Source: an uncultured Methanosarcinales archaeon
GTDB taxonomy: Archaea; Nanobdellota; Nanobdellia; Woesearchaeales; CAZYIM01
DNA length: 36,176 bases
NCBI GenBank assembly: GCA_964647565.1
Contig: CAZYIM010000004.1
Coordinates: forward strand, 1-36,176
Direction: 5' to 3'
Shown here: positions 1 to 15,114 of the stretch, piece after piece
Numbering within the stretch: the first letter of the stretch is position 1
Layout: every line of letters starts with the position of its first letter
Notes under the pieces: generated by a model
Databases searched by the model: none
Told to the model about the DNA's origin: nothing
Seen by the model: only the letters and a program-made list of their open reading frames with translations
Translations under genes and position numbers: made by a program

Positions 1-5
1 ATTCT

Positions 6-2288
6 ATGTTTAAGTGGGCTTTCATTGATCTTTATCTTACTTCAAACTGGTTTATCAAATCCCCTTTTTCAAATAGCATAAAAAATCTACTAAAAAGAAG
101 TTTCACCAAACTGAGAAATGACAAAAGGTTGCCGGGTTGGGCAAAGTTTGAAGCTTTGGAATCTGAAGTAGATAATTTATTTCTTCCGAATCTTGAAGTT
201 AATATCCTTGGAGAAACTTTAAAAACAACCAATCCAGTTACAATTAGAGAGCCTAGAAGAACAATGCCAACACCCACAACTCCCCGCGCTGCTGTACTTA
301 ATGCTATTAGAGAGAATACTAGACGTAGATTTAGGGAGGAAGAGGCTAGAGGTCCTGCTGTGGGCGATGGCGCAGATACCCTTGCTGGTAAAGTTGTTAA
401 TAAAGCTACTGCTTTCGCCAAAGTTGCTCCGCCATTAGCAGCGGCGGTTGCTGTCAAGAAAGCTATTGATACCAAAGAACGGTTTAAGGATTGGAGAGCT
501 CAAAGAAAGCAAAAAAGTGAGGCAAAAGCATCTGTGAAGGCTGCTCGTGCTGAGATTAGGGATAGACGGGAAGCTTTGGATTTGGAGCATGATAAGGTGG
601 CTAAAGAGCGAAAAGAGCGGATAAAGGAACTCAAAAAAGGCACTGGTGCTTTCAGTAAGATGAAAGCCAAGTACAAGGGATTTAACGAAGGCTTTAAGGA
701 TTCTAGAAAGGACAGGAAGGAGGGTAATGATGCCTTGTTTGGCATCAAAGCCTACAAAGGGGATATGGAGGTGGGTGAAGGTCCTATGCTCATATTCCTT
801 CTGATGTGTATTGCCCTTCATTTATATGATGTGCTGCCTGGACTTAATGGCTCCATCAGGGCATTTCCTGACTCCGTCTTATACTTACTTATTTTGTTGA
901 CTATATTTGGAATCCTGTTCTTCAGAATTCACTTAGATCAGGAGGAGGCCGCAATATTCATAGGAATATCTGTTGCGGCATATGTTGTTGCACTTCCTTA
1001 TCATTATATCACGGGCACTAGCGGCATCATGAGAGGTCTTATACGGGGTATAGCCCTTTTTCCTATCTGGCCTGCAGCTATAGGCTTTTGGTTGAGAGGA
1101 GTCTCAAAAGGGGCTGGTACTTCTGAAAACCTGGCAAGACTTTATACTGTAATATGGGTATTTATAATCATAGGAGCTTTTATTGCTGGTTCAGCTACAA
1201 CTGGTGATTTAGGCAAAGGTCCTTTTGAAGGTGTAGGATTTGGACTGAAACAATTCTTTGCGAACATCAGGCAAGGTGCAGTTGATCTGCCTGGCGCCAT
1301 TAACAGATCTATTCACATGAACTTGGGCACCTACTACGAAGGTGAGGTTGAGGACAATCAGAATGAACCGACCGGACTTACGCTAGAGAATATACGTGCT
1401 GCAGACAGCAAATTCTTTACGCATATCCCGATTGTGCTATGGTTCGATGTCAAGGGGCAGAGTTTTAAGAGCTATATGGATGTTATTAGCTGGTGTAAGA
1501 CCCAGGATGGAATTTTAGGTGTGATTGATCCTCCTGAACCTATTCAGATTTATTTCTACGAGCAGCAGACCATTGAATGCAGATTCGAAGCGCTACCCAA
1601 GGATTTCCACACTATCCAAGTAGGAGCTTCATTTAATTTCGAGACCTGGGCATATCTTAAGTATACTTTCATGGATAGGGAAACATTGTTGAGTATGTAT
1701 TCACAGAATAAAGATGTCCATGGTGATTTAGAGATTGACAGAATTCCTAGGGCGGTCTATACTAATGGGCCTATCTCTATTGGTATGCTTTCTGTAGATC
1801 AACCAATAGGCATTAACGCTGAAAATATTAATATTCTGCCAACCTTTGGTATCTCTTTGACTAGCAGAGATGCAAAGGGATCAATAGAAAGAATAGATGC
1901 TGTAGAAGTGATAATTCCAAAAGAGTTGGCTTTCAAGAGATGCGATCATCCTTATGATTATCCCGCCACAGTTAAGTCTGCAGACGATTATGAAGGAGAG
2001 CTTTCTGATGATGGGCTCTATAGGATTTATAATTTTTCAAAAACTTTCAAGCAAGCTATGCAAGGAGGTCAACTTAGGCATTTTGATGATATTTCCCTAA
2101 CCTGTAGATTAGCTATAGCGGGTGGTAAGGATAATGAAGAAACCCAAAAAACCAATGCTGCTGAGTTATTAGGTCTTGGAGTAAAATCAGAGAAGACTTT
2201 TGCTGTCAAGGCCAAGTACATATACTTGTTGGAAGACGAGATTAATATCCAGGTATCAGATATGGATGAACTTTACGGAAGGAGCTAA
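6..2288 (+). CDS. Large membrane protein: basic helical N-terminal region, about 5 TM helices, C-terminal beta-rich domain distantly paralogous to the three downstream lipoproteins; start uncertain (frame open to the window edge)
   Basis: 760-aa ORF. K/R/E-rich stretch about aa 100-245, hydrophobic segments about aa 260-400. C-terminal motifs GLTL..., FNFETWAY, TNGPISI, TCRL, AKYIYL parallel motifs in the downstream ORFs. Confidence 0.75.
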   Translation: MFKWAFIDLYLTSNWFIKSPFSNSIKNLLKRSFTKLRNDKRLPGWAKFEALESEVDNLFLPNLEVNILGETLKTTNPVTIREPRRTMPTPTTPRAAVLNAIRENTRRRFREEEARGPAVGDGADTLAGKVVNKATAFAKVAPPLAAAVAVKKAIDTKERFKDWRAQRKQKSEAKASVKAARAEIRDRREALDLEHDKVAKERKERIKELKKGTGAFSKMKAKYKGFNEGFKDSRKDRKEGNDALFGIKAYKGDMEVGEGPMLIFLLMCIALHLYDVLPGLNGSIRAFPDSVLYLLILLTIFGILFFRIHLDQEEAAIFIGISVAAYVVALPYHYITGTSGIMRGLIRGIALFPIWPAAIGFWLRGVSKGAGTSENLARLYTVIWVFIIIGAFIAGSATTGDLGKGPFEGVGFGLKQFFANIRQGAVDLPGAINRSIHMNLGTYYEGEVEDNQNEPTGLTLENIRAADSKFFTHIPIVLWFDVKGQSFKSYMDVISWCKTQDGILGVIDPPEPIQIYFYEQQTIECRFEALPKDFHTIQVGASFNFETWAYLKYTFMDRETLLSMYSQNKDVHGDLEIDRIPRAVYTNGPISIGMLSVDQPIGINAENINILPTFGISLTSRDAKGSIERIDAVEVIIPKELAFKRCDHPYDYPATVKSADDYEGELSDDGLYRIYNFSKTFKQAMQGGQLRHFDDISLTCRLAIAGGKDNEETQKTNAAELLGLGVKSEKTFAVKAKYIYLLEDEINIQVSDMDELYGRS

Positions 2289-2293
2289 AGAGG

Positions 2294-4972
2294 ATGAGTA
2301 GATTACTATTAGTTGTCATACTATGTGTTATCTTAGTGTCAGGCTGCAATGAGGATCGTTATAATATTAGGGATATCAATTACTACGAAGGTGACGATGG
2401 CTTGGTCATGGAGTTCTTAGAGAATGCGCCGCCTACTGAAGTATATGAGACCTCTGAGTTCCCAATAAAGATCATGATCTTTAACAAGGGAGCTTTTGAT
2501 GTCATTAATAAGAATCATGCAGAGCTGACTATGACCTACGATGGATTCTATCTTGAGGAAGCTGATTCACAGGGATTCAAGTCTTTTTTTGGAACAGATC
2601 CCGATCTGATCACTGATAACCCTGACTTTATCAATCTTACTGGAAAATCACCGGCATATCCGAATGGCAATTTTATGCTTTTTTCTTTAGGCAGTCTTAA
2701 AGCCAGCACTATCAAAGGAACACGGGAGATGCCAGAAACATCTATCTCACTTAATTTATGTTATCCCTATAATACGACCATGGTGGATACTGTTTGTGTT
2801 GATACCAATCTCTATAAAGAGAATCTTAGGACTCAGGTTTGTGAGGCTACTGATCTCAATCTAAGAGACCAAGGGGCTCCAGTTGCAGTCAAGCAAGTCG
2901 AGGTTGAGATGCAGCCTGTTGCAGGTATGGTCAGACCTGTTTTTGTAGTCCATGTTGAGAATGTAGGAGGTGGTAACTTATTGGCTCCAGGAGAAAACTG
3001 TTTGCTTCAATCCAAGAAGAGAAACTCTTGGAACCAGGCCAATATTAGTGCATATCTTTCGAATATAACCTTGGATTGTTCTCCTAAGAATATAAGATTG
3101 ATTGAGGATGAAGGATATACCCGCTGTTATGTGCCGAATGATGCCTTGATATCCGGGATTGATAGTTATATGGCATCAATTACTGTATATCTTAACTATG
3201 TTTACTTGAATACAATTTCAAAGGAATTACAGATCAACAGGGTAAGCAGTTTTGACTTTACATTCAGGGATTCATTTGAATGTGAGTCACACCAGGTTAA
3301 GGATCCTGTCGACGACAGGTGCATGAGCAAGTGTGAGGCCTGCGCCAGATTCCCTGAGCATGAGATGTGTCAGATGCTTGAAGTGCCTATTTCATCAGGC
3401 TTTGCTTGTGTATGTAGCGTAGAGCAATGCTCGAATCTTAAGAATGATAATCGTTGCACATTTGAAAATGTCTGTGCTCCAGGCAGCTACTGCTGTTACA
3501 ATGATGATGTATTGACAATTGAAAAGAAGAGGCCTTATGGAATCAATAAGAGGGATAGTGTGGCTTTCTTCCAGATAACTCCGTTCCATCCTGGCTGTAA
3601 GATATCCTACAATATTGATGCTGGTCAGGATATTAAGTTTGGAGCTGAACAGCACTATACGGAGCCAGTCTTTGATACGCAGCCTGGTGATGATCACTAC
3701 CTTGAGGTCAAGATGGCCTGCGGCCATATCACTGGAAGCAAGAGGGAATATTGGTCTGTTGAACAAATGGGAATCCATGTGAGTGCTGGCACTGTAACTT
3801 TTGAGAATGAGAAGAAAGCTCAAAGTGATGGTAAGGAATATCCCCTTAAAGTGAGCGGCATATTCAATGGAGACGGCACAACATGTGTTGATAATGTTTA
3901 CACTTTGGAGATTGAGAGCACAGAAGCTGAACTCAACAACTATATTAAAAGAAAGATAACAGATAGTTATGATAAGAAGTTAGCAGACTGGAAGATGAAG
4001 ATCTTTGATAAGCTGCAGCAATTGGCTTTAAGAGAATGTGTGACCATTGCCAAACAGCCAGTAACTCGAGATGAGCCAACAAATCCAGGGCCTCGAGACA
4101 TTCCTTTGCAAGACCCATCTATATATGCAGTTGCAAATTTATTGCCTTCAAAAGGATTTTTATACAAGACTGAAAACATAGGCAATATTGGACCAATAAC
4201 TTTGAGAGTATACTTATGGGAACAGTGGGTAGATAACAAGCTTTATATCGCTAAATATTATCATTATCCTATGGGCCAGTATCAACCAGAGGTAGGCAAG
4301 AAACAAGAACTCAAATTTGAGATCCAGATAAAGGATAAGGATGGCAAAATCATACAAGATTTAAAAGATTGGGATCTGAACGGATTTGAGAACGATGATC
4401 CTCCAACAGACGAATGGATTTACCTTAATGGAAAAAAACTATTTACAGCGCATACTGATGGAAAACCTGGCGGCCCAATTACTATTACACAATTAGCAGC
4501 AGCCAATCAAGAATTACAATCCACATTGACAGATCTTAGGAACAGAATCTACAAAAAACATTCCAGTCCGCAAGAGGCCAGCATTAGAACCCTGTTGGCT
4601 GCTTTGGTGGAAAAACTTAATTTATTACCCTTTGGACATGATTGGGAAGATACAGCTAATGACAAGCAATACATACTTTCTATGAGACAATCAGGCAACA
4701 ATCCTCACTATTTTGATTTCAAGGTTAAACAGATTTCATCTGGTAAAATCCTGATGGAATTCAAGGATTATGGCTTTGATGGTTTTAAAGAAGATTCATT
4801 CAAAGACAAAGAACACGCGAGTGGTGAAGCGATAAACACAATCCTTGCCAGCAACACTCAAAGCAATAAAAATACCAACTCTGCCTGGAGTGTTGATGAG
4901 CGACGACAGATAAATAGTGCCTATGCAACTGCAATAGCTGCTTTCACAACATATTATAAGAGCTTAAGCTGA
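2294..4972 (+). CDS. Predicted lipoprotein/surface protein: conserved core, Cys-rich domain and long C-terminal extension
   Basis: Signal peptide with lipobox-like VSGC. Core motifs GLVMEFLENAPP, CYPYNT...VCVD, QGAPVAV, NVGGG, YLNYVY. 12-Cys segment at 3281-3496. GAGG just upstream of the ATG. Confidence 0.85.
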   Translation: MSRLLLVVILCVILVSGCNEDRYNIRDINYYEGDDGLVMEFLENAPPTEVYETSEFPIKIMIFNKGAFDVINKNHAELTMTYDGFYLEEADSQGFKSFFGTDPDLITDNPDFINLTGKSPAYPNGNFMLFSLGSLKASTIKGTREMPETSISLNLCYPYNTTMVDTVCVDTNLYKENLRTQVCEATDLNLRDQGAPVAVKQVEVEMQPVAGMVRPVFVVHVENVGGGNLLAPGENCLLQSKKRNSWNQANISAYLSNITLDCSPKNIRLIEDEGYTRCYVPNDALISGIDSYMASITVYLNYVYLNTISKELQINRVSSFDFTFRDSFECESHQVKDPVDDRCMSKCEACARFPEHEMCQMLEVPISSGFACVCSVEQCSNLKNDNRCTFENVCAPGSYCCYNDDVLTIEKKRPYGINKRDSVAFFQITPFHPGCKISYNIDAGQDIKFGAEQHYTEPVFDTQPGDDHYLEVKMACGHITGSKREYWSVEQMGIHVSAGTVTFENEKKAQSDGKEYPLKVSGIFNGDGTTCVDNVYTLEIESTEAELNNYIKRKITDSYDKKLADWKMKIFDKLQQLALRECVTIAKQPVTRDEPTNPGPRDIPLQDPSIYAVANLLPSKGFLYKTENIGNIGPITLRVYLWEQWVDNKLYIAKYYHYPMGQYQPEVGKKQELKFEIQIKDKDGKIIQDLKDWDLNGFENDDPPTDEWIYLNGKKLFTAHTDGKPGGPITITQLAAANQELQSTLTDLRNRIYKKHSSPQEASIRTLLAALVEKLNLLPFGHDWEDTANDKQYILSMRQSGNNPHYFDFKVKQISSGKILMEFKDYGFDGFKEDSFKDKEHASGEAINTILASNTQSNKNTNSAWSVDERRQINSAYATAIAAFTTYYKSLS

Positions 4973-11854: not shown

Positions 11855-13015
11855 ATGGCATCTAAGGAAGAAATAGACCAAGCATTTTTTTCATATACGA
11901 ACGTTAAGCCACTTAACGGACAGAATGGAAATAAACTTGAAGAAGAGAACAAAGTACTTAGAGAGACAGTAAATCACTTGAAAACAGAATTGCAGCGATT
12001 CAGGACTCCTCCCTTGTTAGTGGCTGAAATAATTGAAGTGCTTGGAGAGAATGCTATTATCAGACTTCCAAATGGCAATAATTTTCTCGTAAACATTAGT
12101 GCAGAGCTAAAAGACCTAAATCCGAGTGATTCTGTGGTCGTTGAACAAAAAAACCTTACTGTGATGGATAAGATTAATTCTACTAAAAAATTCAATGTAG
12201 AGAGCTTTGTGATCATTGAAAAACCCACAATAACCTGGAAAGATATTGGCGGATTGAATGAACAAATAGAGGATATCAAAGAAGTAATCGAGCTTCCCTT
12301 GAAAAAACCCGAGCTTTTCAAAAAAGTAGGTATTAAACCTCCTAAAGGCATCCTGCTTTATGGACCTCCTGGAACAGGAAAAACCCTGCTAGCAAAGGCG
12401 GTGGCTGCATCAACCAATTCAACCTTTATTGAAATAGTGGCTGCAGAACTGGTTCAGAAATTTATTGGAGAAGGTGCAAAACTGGTCAATGAGATATTTG
12501 ATATGGCCAGGGAGAAAGCACCGGCCATAATTTTTATTGATGAACTTGATGCTTTGGCCGCCAAACGAGTAGAACTAGGAACTTCAGGAGAACGGGAGGT
12601 ACAAAGGACGTTTATGCAGTTTTTAGCAGAGTTGGATGGATTTAAGCCTTTGGATAATGTAAAAATTATCGGTTGTACTAACCGAAAAGATATTCTTGAT
12701 CCTGCAGTACTTAGGCCCGGCAGGCTTGATAGACTGATAGATGTGCCTCTTCCTGATAAGGAAGGTATTAAACGAATATTCAAGATTCATACTCAAGCTA
12801 TGACTTTGAGTAAAAATATAAATTTCAACAAGATACATCATAAACTAGAAGAGTTTTCAGGGGCTGAAATAAATGCAGTCTGTACAGAAGCAGGTTATTT
12901 TGCCATTAGAGATAACAGAATTAAAATCCAGGAAAAGGATTTTCTTGACGGTATAAAGAAGGTCAAGAAAGAAGAAGAGCGTCAAGGTCAGGATTACCTG
13001 CACATGTTTGGATAA
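11855..13015 (+). CDS. pan: Proteasome-activating nucleotidase (AAA+ ATPase)
   Basis: N-terminal coiled coil and OB domain (PPLLVA), DIGGL, GPPGTGKT, FIDELD, GEREVQRT, RPGRLDR, C-terminal HbYX-like MFG. Start ATG 11855 has a TATA-like element about 25 nt upstream. Confidence 0.95.
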   Translation: MASKEEIDQAFFSYTNVKPLNGQNGNKLEEENKVLRETVNHLKTELQRFRTPPLLVAEIIEVLGENAIIRLPNGNNFLVNISAELKDLNPSDSVVVEQKNLTVMDKINSTKKFNVESFVIIEKPTITWKDIGGLNEQIEDIKEVIELPLKKPELFKKVGIKPPKGILLYGPPGTGKTLLAKAVAASTNSTFIEIVAAELVQKFIGEGAKLVNEIFDMAREKAPAIIFIDELDALAAKRVELGTSGEREVQRTFMQFLAELDGFKPLDNVKIIGCTNRKDILDPAVLRPGRLDRLIDVPLPDKEGIKRIFKIHTQAMTLSKNINFNKIHHKLEEFSGAEINAVCTEAGYFAIRDNRIKIQEKDFLDGIKKVKKEEERQGQDYLHMFG

Positions 13016-13167: not shown

Positions 13168-13896
13168 TTAAATAAATGCGAGAATTATTAATCCAATTAT
13201 GTCTATGAAATATAGAACTAATAATTTTTTTCTTTGTTTTACCCAAATTTTATTAAATTCTTTTTGCTTAAACTTCCCAGGAATTCTACCTCTAAAAATC
13301 TTTTTATAGAATTCAGATATGATTCTCTCTCCTCCAGTTATGGATAATAAGAAATATTTTCCGGGTATGTTTGGAAACAAAAAGTTAATGCCCAAACCTA
13401 CAACAATTGCAACCAAAGGACTACGGAAAAATTTAATTTTATCAAAACCTTCATATGGCGCATCTTTTAGCATCCCTCCAAGGGCGACAATAAAACCAAT
13501 AATCAAAGTTAAATATATTTTATTCATAGAAATTTCTATATAATATATTAAAAACCCAATTATCAATATCAGAAATACGCCTGTTACAAATTTTAATTGG
13601 TAGTTTATCTTGATGTTTAAATCTGATGGAATTTTATATTTATTCTGATTTTCTACTCTAATCAAAGCCTTGTAAATTTCTGTTGTAATTCTTTCTAAAC
13701 TTATTATAACCAATGCAACAATCAATAGGGGTAAATTAGGATTTATAAAGAATAATAAAATACTCCACAGAATACCAATAACTATGCTACGCAGTATTTT
13801 CGATGCACGAATTTTTTCAACTAATGAATCTCCATATAATCCCCATAGAATCATGTTTATTACTCCCAGTATACCAGATAAAATGTATGTAATCAT
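13168..13896 (-). CDS. Integral membrane protein with internal duplication; function unknown
   Basis: 242 aa, multiple TM segments. Both halves share G..(K/G)D...E.....K..RS....ERI..E.YK...R....K(Y/F). Visibly more AT-rich than its neighbours. Confidence 0.8.
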   Translation of the reverse strand: MITYILSGILGVINMILWGLYGDSLVEKIRASKILRSIVIGILWSILLFFINPNLPLLIVALVIISLERITTEIYKALIRVENQNKYKIPSDLNIKINYQLKFVTGVFLILIIGFLIYYIEISMNKIYLTLIIGFIVALGGMLKDAPYEGFDKIKFFRSPLVAIVVGLGINFLFPNIPGKYFLLSITGGERIISEFYKKIFRGRIPGKFKQKEFNKIWVKQRKKLLVLYFIDIIGLIILAFI

Positions 13897-14000: not shown

Positions 14001-14008
14001 TTTTTAAA
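14001..14008 (+). promoter_or_regulatory. TATA box for the C/D sRNA
   Basis: TTTTTAAA 22-29 nt upstream of the sRNA terminal stem at 14030. Confidence 0.5.
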
Positions 14009-14029
14009 CTTAACAATCTCACTATTGTT

Positions 14030-14103
14030 GTGCGTGCAATGAGGGAAGTGAACACCCACTGAGCGAAAGCAATGAAGAGCGGAAGTAACTACCGAGCACG
14101 CAC
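14030..14103 (+). ncRNA. Archaeal box C/D 2'-O-methylation guide sRNA
   Basis: 8-bp terminal stem GTGCGTGC/GCACGCAC. Box C ATGAGG(G) at 14039, D' CTGA 14059-14062, GC-GAAA-GC tetraloop, C' ATGAAGA 14072-14078, D CCGA 14092-14095. The C/D deviations are compensatory (G-C pair). Two guides of about 13 nt. Confidence 0.85.
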
Positions 14104-14106
14104 TCT

Positions 14107-15114
14107 TTATTCTATTCGAAAATCAATACATACTCTGAATACATATGGTGCAAATTGTCCGCATTTGACTGTTCTTAGAATCTTGCATTTCAATTGGTTT
14201 CGCTTACATATCTTTGTGATCTTATTCCTTGCTAACTTAAATTCTTTTTCTCTTAAGAACTCATAGAAATGAATGATCGTGCCTTTTTTTGAAGCAAAAA
14301 GCGCAGCGTCAAGAAAATCTTCTGCGCCTTTAGGAAGAGGCATAAGAATTCTATCGAATTTCATTTTAAGCTTAGGAACAACCTTATTTACATCACCTTT
14401 GTAGAGTTTCACTTTACTGATTTTATTTAACTTGATGTTTTCCTCAGCATATTTATGTGCGATTGGGTTAAGTTCGATTCCTATAACCTCTTCGGGCTGG
14501 CTGTTTTTTGCTATAACACAAGGATAGGGTGCGCATCCTGAAAACATAACAAGAATCAGTTCATTGTTTTTAACAAGCTGATATATTCTTTTTCTTTCAT
14601 TACTCGATCTTGCAGAGAAATAGACCTTTTCAACATCTAGTTTTAGTTTTACGTTATTTTCGATATAGATTGTCTCTTTGGTCCTCTGCCCTGCTAAGTA
14701 TTTCATCTTTTGAGTCCTGAAAGTGCCGCCGTGGATATCTGCTTTTTTTACGACAGTCTTGATGATCTTGTTACTCTGAAGCAAGGTCTCTGCTATCAGT
14801 TTCTCTTTTTTCCTAAGCTCTTCAGGAACCTCAACAATGGCAATGCTACCGACAACATCATATGCTCTCCTGAGCAGAGCTAATTCTTTTTTTGAAAGAG
14901 ATTTTTCAAGAGAGTCTTTGAGCGATCCAGCTTTCTTTTTTTTGGTTAATTGTTTATTGATTATTGTTTCAGTTGTGGAAAACCTCTTCTTGATAGGGTA
15001 ATAGATGTATTGTTCATCCTTAGAAAACTTGTAATCGTAATCAAGTAACCCTTTTTTCATAAGAGTTCGCTTTACTTTCTCAGCCTTTTTTAGAGGTACT
15101 TTTAGTGTTAACAT
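14107..15114 (-). CDS. trm5: Trm5/Taw2-family (Met-10+-like) tRNA methyltransferase, probably tRNA m1G37 MTase
   Basis: N-terminal D1 domain, YDVVGSIAI, KVYFSAR...ERKR, SAM motif MFSGCAPY, ELNP, FDRILMPLP, IIHFY. Confidence 0.88.
   Translation of the reverse strand: MLTLKVPLKKAEKVKRTLMKKGLLDYDYKFSKDEQYIYYPIKKRFSTTETIINKQLTKKKKAGSLKDSLEKSLSKKELALLRRAYDVVGSIAIVEVPEELRKKEKLIAETLLQSNKIIKTVVKKADIHGGTFRTQKMKYLAGQRTKETIYIENNVKLKLDVEKVYFSARSSNERKRIYQLVKNNELILVMFSGCAPYPCVIAKNSQPEEVIGIELNPIAHKYAEENIKLNKISKVKLYKGDVNKVVPKLKMKFDRILMPLPKGAEDFLDAALFASKKGTIIHFYEFLREKEFKLARNKITKICKRNQLKCKILRTVKCGQFAPYVFRVCIDFRIE

Follow-up and report, generated by a model that had tools for sequence, protein, structure and literature searches.

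A Woesearchaeal box C/D small RNA with predicted guides for two sites of the 23S rRNA peptidyl-transferase centre

Results

A box C/D small RNA in an unannotated interval

The window analysed here, i.e., the whole 36,176-nucleotide (nt) stretch of contig CAZYIM010000004.1 from the archaeal assembly GCA_964647565.1, carries at positions 14030–14103 of the plus strand an unannotated element of ~74 nt, in which the full C-D′-C′-D layout of a box C/D small RNA (sRNA) was read directly from the sequence. Our preferred reading, to which we assign a probability of roughly 0.8, is that of an independently transcribed archaeal C/D sRNA of ~74 nt that would guide 2′-O-methylation of the 23S ribosomal RNA (rRNA) at the equivalent of Escherichia coli U2552 (Um2552) and, most likely, also at that of U2438 (Um2438), both in the peptidyl-transferase centre (PTC); expression, assembly of the ribonucleoprotein (RNP) and both methylations are deduced here from sequence and comparison. 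That the element is a genuine box C/D sRNA seems to us nearly certain. Its parts are as follows, together with the proposed promoter and terminator.

14030–14037 (+): 5′ strand of the 8-base-pair (bp) terminal stem, GTGCGTGC; pairs with 14096–14103
14039–14045 (+): box C, AUGAGGG (consensus RUGAUGA), after a single A; UGA retained
14046–14058 (+): C-D′ spacer, i.e., the D′ guide, 13 nt, AAGTGAACACCCA / AAGUGAACACCCA; position 5 from D′ is A14054
14059–14062 (+): box D′, CUGA; NUGA, NCGA or NAGA in orthologues
14063–14070 (+): internal hairpin GCGAAAGC, GC-GAAA-GC, closing the C′/D′ motif; from sequence and fold
14072–14078 (+): box C′, AUGAAGA, after a single A; UGA conserved in the alignment
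14079–14091 (+): C′-D spacer, i.e., the D guide, 13 nt, GCGGAAGTAACTA / GCGGAAGUAACUA; position 5 from D is A14087 and the proposed bulge is A14083
14092–14095 (+): box D, CCGA (consensus CUGA); GA retained
14096–14103 (+): 3′ strand of the terminal stem, GCACGCAC; pairs with 14030–14037
14001–14008 (+): TATA-like promoter element, TTTTTAAA; its TTTAAA starts 36 nt 5′ of the box C TGA
14104–14114 (+): T-rich tract TCTTTATTCTA, probably an archaeal terminator; runs into the 3′ end of a convergent Trm5b gene

The 8-bp stem, the order of the boxes and the GAAA hairpin were thus all recovered as a preliminary description of this DNA had given them. No such boxes were read on the reverse complement of 14030–14103, and the element has a G+C content of 54%, compared with 37% for the window. 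RNAfold returned −20.8 kcal/mol (z = −2.99) with both the terminal stem and the GAAA hairpin. In the non-consensus boxes C and D, positions 5–6 of box C (GG) pair with positions 2–1 of box D (CC), while the UGA and GA forming the two G-A pairs are kept.

With regard to the frequency of such a layout by chance, a strict scan was run over the 2.68-Mb genome, in which both box pairs, spacers of 11–13 nt, pairing of box C positions 5–6 with box D positions 2–1 and a terminal stem of at least 4 bp were demanded. It returned nine matches, compared with none in a reversed-sequence control, and this locus alone among the nine had an rRNA complement of at least 10 bp; seven of the other eight candidates showed rRNA runs of 8–9 nt, which is within the chance range, and one showed none of 8 nt or more. 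A much looser scan of the same genome (TGA-spacer-NNGA with a 9-nt rRNA complement) gave no enrichment, with 1234 matches in the real sequence versus 1107 in the control.

Conservation, covariation and promoter across the order

In order to follow the element in relatives, 40 genomes of 0.6–2.1 Mb from the same order (Woesearchaeales) and different families were sampled. Orthologues were found by blastn of the locus in 21 of them, and these, together with three added by a simple pattern over fetched loci, made up a 24-sequence alignment. A covariance model built from that alignment, which scores the locus itself at 87.5 bits (14027–14105), matched in 34/40 relatives. On inspection, the matches in two genomes (G014 and G028) carried the D guide only, and one further genome (G033), which is not among the 34, has a form with swapped guides, the U2552 guide being present in 33/40 relatives. 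In a phylum-wide sample the model matched in 96/150 genomes (91 labelled as the same order and 5 as the same class), the lower-scoring matches of which are uninspected and may belong to a second sRNA family described below. Finally, a pattern scan in which each prokaryotic species was represented by a single genome returned at least 116 loci; those listed comprised 115 in archaeal metagenome-assembled genomes (MAGs) and one on an Enterobacter contig, which was rejected as a chance match since none of the flanking features was present. Because this pattern required both guide cores, their invariance in that set holds by construction, and the counts given below for listed orthologues refer to it.

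The structure itself, counted as the terminal stem, the two K-turn pairs and the internal hairpin, was conserved in the 24 orthologues: 85.2% of the cells were paired, compared with 63.3 ± 1.8% after shuffling (0/500 shuffles reached the observed value) and with at most 50.5% in slid controls, and the covariation score was 0.570 versus 0.209. Changes on both sides were seen in 12 of the 14 pairs, including all eight of the terminal stem. The concerted change of AUGAGG and CCGA pointed out in the preliminary description is borne out here, as the same columns covary: the sixth position of box C and the first of box D form UA in 13, GC in 6, CG in 4 and another combination in 1 of the sequences, and the adjacent pair is standard in 13/24 and non-standard in 11/24, the latter mostly the canonical U-U by reading of the alignment. 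The internal helix covaries as well (column pair 37–50: GC 13, CG 5, UA 5), and its loops are mostly tetraloops (GAAA, GCAA, UUCG). The stems vary, whereas the D′ guide core GTGAACACC and the D guide core GTAACT are invariant in 24/24 sequences, a blastn-derived set free of the selection by guide core that affects the listed loci. As for spacer length, the C′-D spacer is 13 nt and ungapped in all 24, and among the 115 orthologues listed the C-D′ spacer measures 12 nt in most (88), 13 nt in 26 and 11 nt in a single one. Guide spacers of archaeal C/D sRNAs are normally ~12 nt long, and the textbook archaeal sRNA has a C′/D′ motif with a short K-loop linker; on our analysis, the family departs from it in two respects, namely the covarying hairpin that closes C′/D′ and the 13-nt D spacer with its putatively bulged base.

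TATA-like hexamers upstream of the 114 listed orthologues whose upstream flank was long enough peaked sharply, with 50/114 at −39 to −35 compared with 1–20 in any other 5-nt bin between −124 and −10, which argues for an sRNA gene with its own archaeal promoter; together with the TTTAAA of the window, this bears out the earlier proposal of a separate promoter. A T-rich run within the 15 nt that follow the stem was present in 59/115 listed orthologues, which, with no control count, is weak evidence.

Two kinds of structural variants were seen. In 21/115 listed orthologues the last two nucleotides of box D are UA or CA where others have GA (e.g., L065, L072, L091, L102, L108, L130, L150 and L158); by eye, this subgroup has one extra box C nucleotide and a longer terminal stem starting with GTGCAAC or GTGGAA, and mostly no upstream TATA element, which suggests a variant K-turn and perhaps another mode of transcription or processing. 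The orthologue of G003 (L043) has a shortened internal module, GTGAACACC-CGA-GCCCTATGGC-TGA-CGGAAGTAACT, with only minimal D′/C′ remnants beside the hairpin.

The conservation data also bear on the view that the element is no methylation guide at all, being instead either a motif arisen by chance or a structure that binds L7Ae or terminates transcription on behalf of the neighbouring genes. Only 4 nt do separate it from the Trm5b stop codon of the convergent gene, and Rfam yielded no match at the gathering score over the whole window. Under relaxed settings, three plus-strand matches on the element were all to C/D snoRNA families (ceN89, SNORD63 and sR1; 9.7–15.3 bits, E 2–7), and the best of them, ceN89, reached 15.3 bits against a threshold of 48, placing the element in no existing Rfam family; a curated match is not to be expected, since its guides differ from those of every curated family. 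Order-wide conservation, two invariant single-stranded stretches complementary to two rRNA sites, covarying stems, the TATA peak of its own and the empty scan control speak against such a view, which we regard as negligible in probability. Likewise, the open reading frames (ORFs) of 40–64 amino acids that overlap the locus were rejected as genes, as what is conserved are invariant guides and covarying stems, not codons.

The D′ guide and the A-loop

The preliminary description had predicted the A-loop of 23S rRNA as the target of the D′ guide, and the corresponding sequence GGGUGUUCAC was indeed found in the 23S rRNA of the genome. Positions 2–11 of the guide form 10 contiguous Watson–Crick pairs with it, and the N+5 rule designates the U before GUUC, i.e., the U of UGUUC (nt 2626 of the genome's 23S copy), with which the loop of helix 92 begins and which corresponds to E. 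coli U2552. A 10-mer match in 4.3 kb of rRNA in one fixed register is expected ~0.004 times by calculation. When the guide was scanned for duplexes against the 16S and available 23S rRNA, the A-loop ranked first with −19.3 kcal/mol, the next site reaching −12.7 kcal/mol (a margin of 6.6). It is thus highly probable that the D′ guide directs Um2552. As its pairing partner comprises one strand of helix 92 together with the loop, the guide would need to act ahead of helix formation.

The D guide and the 2435–2444 strand

The best site for the D guide in the same duplex scan was the strand AGUUACUCCGG with a bulge (−12.9 kcal/mol), within a 23S context reading AAAAGUUACUCCGGGGAUAAC. Against 23S AGUUACUCCG (E. 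coli 2435–2444; target U2438) the guide forms 7 bp, a 1-nt guide bulge and 3 bp: positions 2–8 pair with AGUUACU, A14083 (position 9) is bulged, and beyond it GGC is matched by CCG. At the fifth pair the guide invariably meets the second U of GUUAC (AAAAGUUAC), which we take to be U2438 by counting from the landmarks D2449, Ψ2457 and Um2552, with a check against the E. coli row of a published alignment. The preliminary description was therefore right in placing a second target near U2438; its predicted perfect complement AGUUACUUCCG, in turn, is absent from the rRNA of the genome, which reads AGUUACUCCGG instead.

Comparison with relatives is consistent with this assignment. The best D-guide match was the same in 4/4 full-length 23S rRNAs of relatives, and the AGUUACUCCGG strand is identical in the genome itself and in all six relatives lacking RlmE (see below) that were checked (G011, G017, G022, G025, G031 and G032). 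Among 116 D guides (those of the 115 listed loci plus the window), 97 (~84%) are of the bulge type, namely GGAAGTAACT in 63, GGTAGTAACT in 25 and GGATGTAACT in 9. The extra base is thus A in 63 and U in 25 at position 9, and U in 9 at position 8, i.e., it behaves as an unpaired base would. Fifteen of the 116 have no extra base and pair over 8–10 contiguous bp, and four others keep the 7-bp core; of the variants, CGGAGTAACT makes an uninterrupted helix of 10 bp, and TGGAGTAACT one of 10 bp or of 9 bp with an additional G-U. The swapped sRNA of G033, which reads ATGATGA-TCGGAGTAACTA-CTGA-TTTT-GTGATGA-GGTGAACACCAG-CTGA, holds the same two guides with their slots exchanged; its boxes are canonical, its spacers are 12 nt long and it has no bulge.

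The contig of G033 in question (C27, ~11870–12260; L208 and L209) carries two sRNA genes ~276 nt apart, both with the U2552 guide before D. In one of them the D′ slot holds the U2438 guide, in the other a guide unrelated to either.

All in all, the D guide very probably binds the 2435–2444 strand, and methylation of U2438 is the outcome that we favour for it, with distinctly less assurance. The energy margin in the genome itself is narrow, and the case for this site rests on the comparison.

Core proteins and the distribution of RlmE

The window is part (contig C4) of an 86-contig assembly of 2.68 Mb with 38.4% G+C, 87% completeness and 1.85% contamination, the rRNA operon of which lies on contig C15. 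Public contigs with the same RNA were titled Candidatus Woesearchaeota, Nanoarchaeota, Nanoarchaeia or Nanobdellota among the matches listed, and the name "uncultured Methanosarcinales" on a large batch of carrier contigs is taken as a default label. Placement within the DPANN archaea, as put forward previously, agrees with the Woesearchaeota or Nanoarchaeota labels on the MAGs of the relatives; the description of the genome as reduced was overstated, as at 2.68 Mb and 87% completeness it is larger than all 40 sampled relatives.

All three core proteins of the C/D RNP that had been named in that description are encoded in the genome: contig C30 carries neighbouring genes for fibrillarin (265 bits) and Nop5 (189 bits) at 2348–3639, and contig C8 carries one for L7Ae (101 bits) at 47426–47704. 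RlmE, the stand-alone enzyme that it had named as making Um2552 in bacteria, was not found: matches of the Pfam FtsJ profile were partial, with at most 33.6 bits, and tblastn of the genome with two Woesearchaeal RlmE-like proteins gave a best E of 0.29; at 87% completeness, this absence is unproven.

Among the 40 relatives, full-length FtsJ was found only in G002 (194.9 bits), G013 (157.8 bits) and G040 (138.3 bits), all others reaching at most 39.2 bits; the protein of G002 aligns with TIGR00438 (rrmJ) along its full length and scores 194 bits, short of the strict cut-off of that model (300). The gene was therefore present in 3/7 relatives without the U2552 guide and in 0/33 with it. A second, non-overlapping set gave a similar picture, with full-length FtsJ in 4/18 model-negative genomes (165, 157, 84.7 and 84.7 bits) and in 0/18 model-positive ones. 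When the 76 relatives were pooled, an RlmE-like gene was present in 7/25 without the sRNA versus 0/51 with it (one-sided hypergeometric p ~2e-4, to be read bearing in mind that the seven RlmE-bearing genomes represent six families and that kin are not independent).

The two routes do not cover every genome, since 18 of the 25 genomes without the sRNA showed neither. Ten of these 18 come from family f43 (G042, G061, G063 and others), in which 11 genomes were tested for RlmE and one had an FtsJ-like gene; the sRNA model matched in 0/16 genomes of the family. Five GTGAACACC matches inspected in genomes without sRNA and RlmE were discarded as coding sequence or rRNA antisense, and a loose guide pattern gave counts near those of the controls, at chance level, in the genomes negative for both; no guide was found for the 18 genomes, and in family f43 no GTGAACACC guide was seen in a C/D context. 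Fibrillarin was present in 38/40 relatives, the exceptions being G017 (neither route) and G040 (RlmE). All sRNA-bearing genomes checked keep AGUUACUCCGG, and the 2435–2444 strand differs in two of the three RlmE-bearing relatives (AGCUAUCCCGG in G002 and AGUUACCACGG in G040); with two to three genomes, this is at best a hint.

Two side observations were made on the RNA genes of the genome. The Rfam tRNA model RF00005 recognised 10 tRNA genes in the 2.68 Mb, nine of which contain introns, as judged by their lengths of 83–123 nt, and aragorn gave 8–18 odd and inconsistent calls; a large share of the tRNA genes may thus be in pieces, be permuted, hold several introns or be missing from the assembly. 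The 23S rRNA (contig C15 ~1–260, minus strand), when aligned with that of G031, shows two insertions, one of 29 and one of 30 nt, the segment being 197 nt long compared with 138 nt in G031, G022 and G025. They lie between the two sRNA target sites, at what we take to be the tips of helices 89 and 91, and such expansions near the PTC are unusual.

Proposed mode of action and its alternatives

Following the known mechanism of the family, L7Ae would bind two K-turns, that is, C/D closed by the 8-bp terminal stem and C′/D′ closed by the GAAA hairpin. Nop5 and fibrillarin would then assemble on them, each guide would form a short helix with nascent 23S rRNA, and fibrillarin would methylate the ribose opposite guide position 5. 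The D′ guide would bind the 5′ strand of helix 92 and its loop while the helix is still unfolded, bringing the 2′-OH of the U2552 equivalent into the active site of fibrillarin and yielding Um2552, so that the sRNA would perform in this organism what stand-alone RlmE does elsewhere. The D guide would pair with 2435–2444, the helix 74 strand of the peptidyl-transferase ring, and most likely give Um2438 with A14083 bulged.

A number of observations weigh against this proposal. No RNA run matched the locus; eight DNA-type runs from two studies hold all or part of it, five of them with at least half of the sampled words. Within the genome itself the D guide makes only 7 contiguous bp and reaches a pairing of 9 bp or more only as the interrupted 7+3, a G-U-rich site at nt 1767 of the 23S copy comes close in energy (−12.6 kcal/mol), and the 23S rRNA ends at a contig end near E. 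coli 2630, the missing last ~270 nt of which could hold a better D target. A bulged guide–target duplex is not the textbook substrate geometry, and no published account of whether C/D RNPs tolerate it was found. To these are added the points given above, i.e., the lack of an Rfam match at the gathering score, guide cores that are invariant by construction in the largest set, the incompleteness of the genome with respect to RlmE, the relatedness of the RlmE-bearing genomes and the genomes with neither route.

The 7-bp contiguous pairing, shared by 97 of the 116 listed D guides, and the small energy margin over other sites would also be expected if only the D′ guide were catalytic and the D guide acted as an anchor or folding chaperone, holding the strand open or tethering the RNP ~114–170 nt from the A-loop; according to van Nues et al. 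(2011; PMC3116282), extra snoRNA–rRNA pairing aids nearby methylation in yeast. The register is strict, however, with GTAACT always one nt from box D, such that position 5 faces the same U; a pure tether needs no fixed register, which therefore counts against this explanation, and both sR14 of Nanoarchaeum equitans and 15/116 listed orthologues pair contiguously in the same register. We consider the anchoring role improbable.

Still less probable, and by a wide step, is that the true target of the D guide is another RNA complementary to CGGAAGUAACU, such as the unassembled 3′ end of the 23S rRNA, a tRNA (possibly across a splice junction) or 23S nt 1767. The missing 23S segment, the recognition of just 10 tRNA genes, most with introns, and the energy of the nt 1767 site leave some room for it. 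Yet the perfect complement AGTTACTTCCG, which is present in 23/41 genomes with 28 occurrences, is at 19 of the 28 the antisense strand of the sRNA loci themselves, and we saw no target of perfect complementarity that recurs among the 41 genomes (the remaining nine occurrences being uninspected except one, in G002, which is in a coding region). Moreover, 4/4 complete 23S rRNAs of relatives give the 2435–2444 strand as the best match, and the extra base of the guide is sometimes A and sometimes U, as would suit an unpaired one.

Related guide RNAs and enzymes

Both target sites are already predicted C/D targets in N. equitans, in the data of Dennis et al. (2015; PMC4644070), where the A-loop's initial nucleotide figures as a predicted C/D target in five/seven archaea. 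In the entries of that source, sR10 has the D′ guide AGTGAACACCCT with the predicted targets 23S U2880 and U2826 (supplement 1, row 256, and target sheet), and sR14 has the D guide AAGGAGTAGCTG with the predicted target 23S U2712 (row 260). U2826 is the A-loop U2552 site, since the same paper equates C2830 with E. coli C2556, and U2712 corresponds to U2438, as both lie 114 nt upstream of the A-loop site. According to the review by Breuer et al. (2021; PMC7994747), N. equitans has 26 C/D sRNAs, and U2552 and/or G2553 are always modified.

NeqsR10 (Randau 2012; PMC4644070), the host of which is cultured and belongs to the NCBI phylum Nanoarchaeota, also the label on several of the relatives' MAGs, resembles the Woesearchaeal sRNA in having the same D′ core GTGAACACC before CUGA and the same A-loop target. 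As listed there, it differs in its D guide AAAAATCCACACA, which targets another 23S site (U2880), in its canonical boxes, in a 3-nt D′-C′ linker without hairpin and in the lack of a long terminal stem in the listed sequence. The likeness may reflect homology or convergence on a conserved target. The D guide of NeqsR14, AAGGAGTAGCTG before CAGA, complements N. equitans 23S AGCUACUCC in the same register; unlike the bulge-type D guides, it does so over 9 contiguous bp without a bulge, and its other guide is listed without a predicted target. The two guide functions thus lie on one RNA in Woesearchaeales and, going by those entries, on two separate RNAs in N. equitans.

RlmE (RrmJ/FtsJ; TIGR00438, PF01728) would make the same product, Um2552, as a protein-only enzyme without guide RNA, and among the sampled relatives it occurs only in genomes without this sRNA. 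The A-loop uridine of yeast 25S rRNA (U2921; snR52/Spb1) is methylated under RNA guidance by a fibrillarin RNP; this system and the other archaeal A-loop guides belong to different organisms and use different guide RNAs.

A second sRNA family of Woesearchaeales was encountered in six relatives (L222 in G014, L223 in G028, L224 in G016, L225 in G037, L227 in G006 and L228 in G025) and was not found in the genome itself. This family shares the D guide (CGGAAGTAACT or GAGTAACT, U2438 site) and the overall architecture of the sRNA described here, and differs in its D′ guide GTTATTCCCRG (GTTATCCCCG in G025), which in five of the six genomes complements 23S CCGGGGAUAAC with N+5 at G2446 (own numbering); the D′ guide of G028 differs. 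Where both guides pair here, they cover overlapping stretches of the same rRNA strand.

Genomic setting

The sRNA is flanked by two minus-strand ORFs. The ORF at 13168–13896 (−) had no match to a Pfam family; that at 14107–15114 (−) encodes a Trm5b/Taw22-like tRNA (guanine37-N1) methyltransferase, is convergent with the sRNA and has its stop codon 4 nt past the 3′ stem.

Discussion

The element described here is a known kind of RNA, hitherto unannotated, for which a family spanning the order Woesearchaeales is now recognised. In the literature found on Woesearchaeal fibrillarin and DPANN box sRNAs, no description of this family was met, only incidental mentions. The known picture of C/D sRNA function is left unchanged, and the novelty is modest, consisting in two PTC guides fused on one RNA, a conserved bulge and a pattern of exclusion with RlmE.

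A more far-reaching interpretation would hold that the D guide uses a conserved, non-canonical mode of recognition, with one bulged, variable A/U four positions from the methylation site, and that the sRNA is the replacement of RlmE in this lineage, with repeated switches of route within the order. We regard this as speculative and, taken as a whole, unlikely. If the bulged mode were true, it would mean that C/D RNPs can methylate through an interrupted guide–target helix, and the conserved bulge therefore poses a testable question on the substrate geometry of these RNPs.

For the biology of the group, the finding has several implications. Um2552 is among the most widely conserved rRNA modifications, and the way in which DPANN archaea make it is undescribed in the literature found. 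The sRNA offers an easily recognised, order-wide marker that is missed by current annotation and Rfam, and its mutual exclusion with RlmE provides a natural comparative system for the replacement of an RNA-guided by a stand-alone enzyme, or the reverse. Finally, it points to two sites of the PTC that even archaea with small genomes keep modifying.

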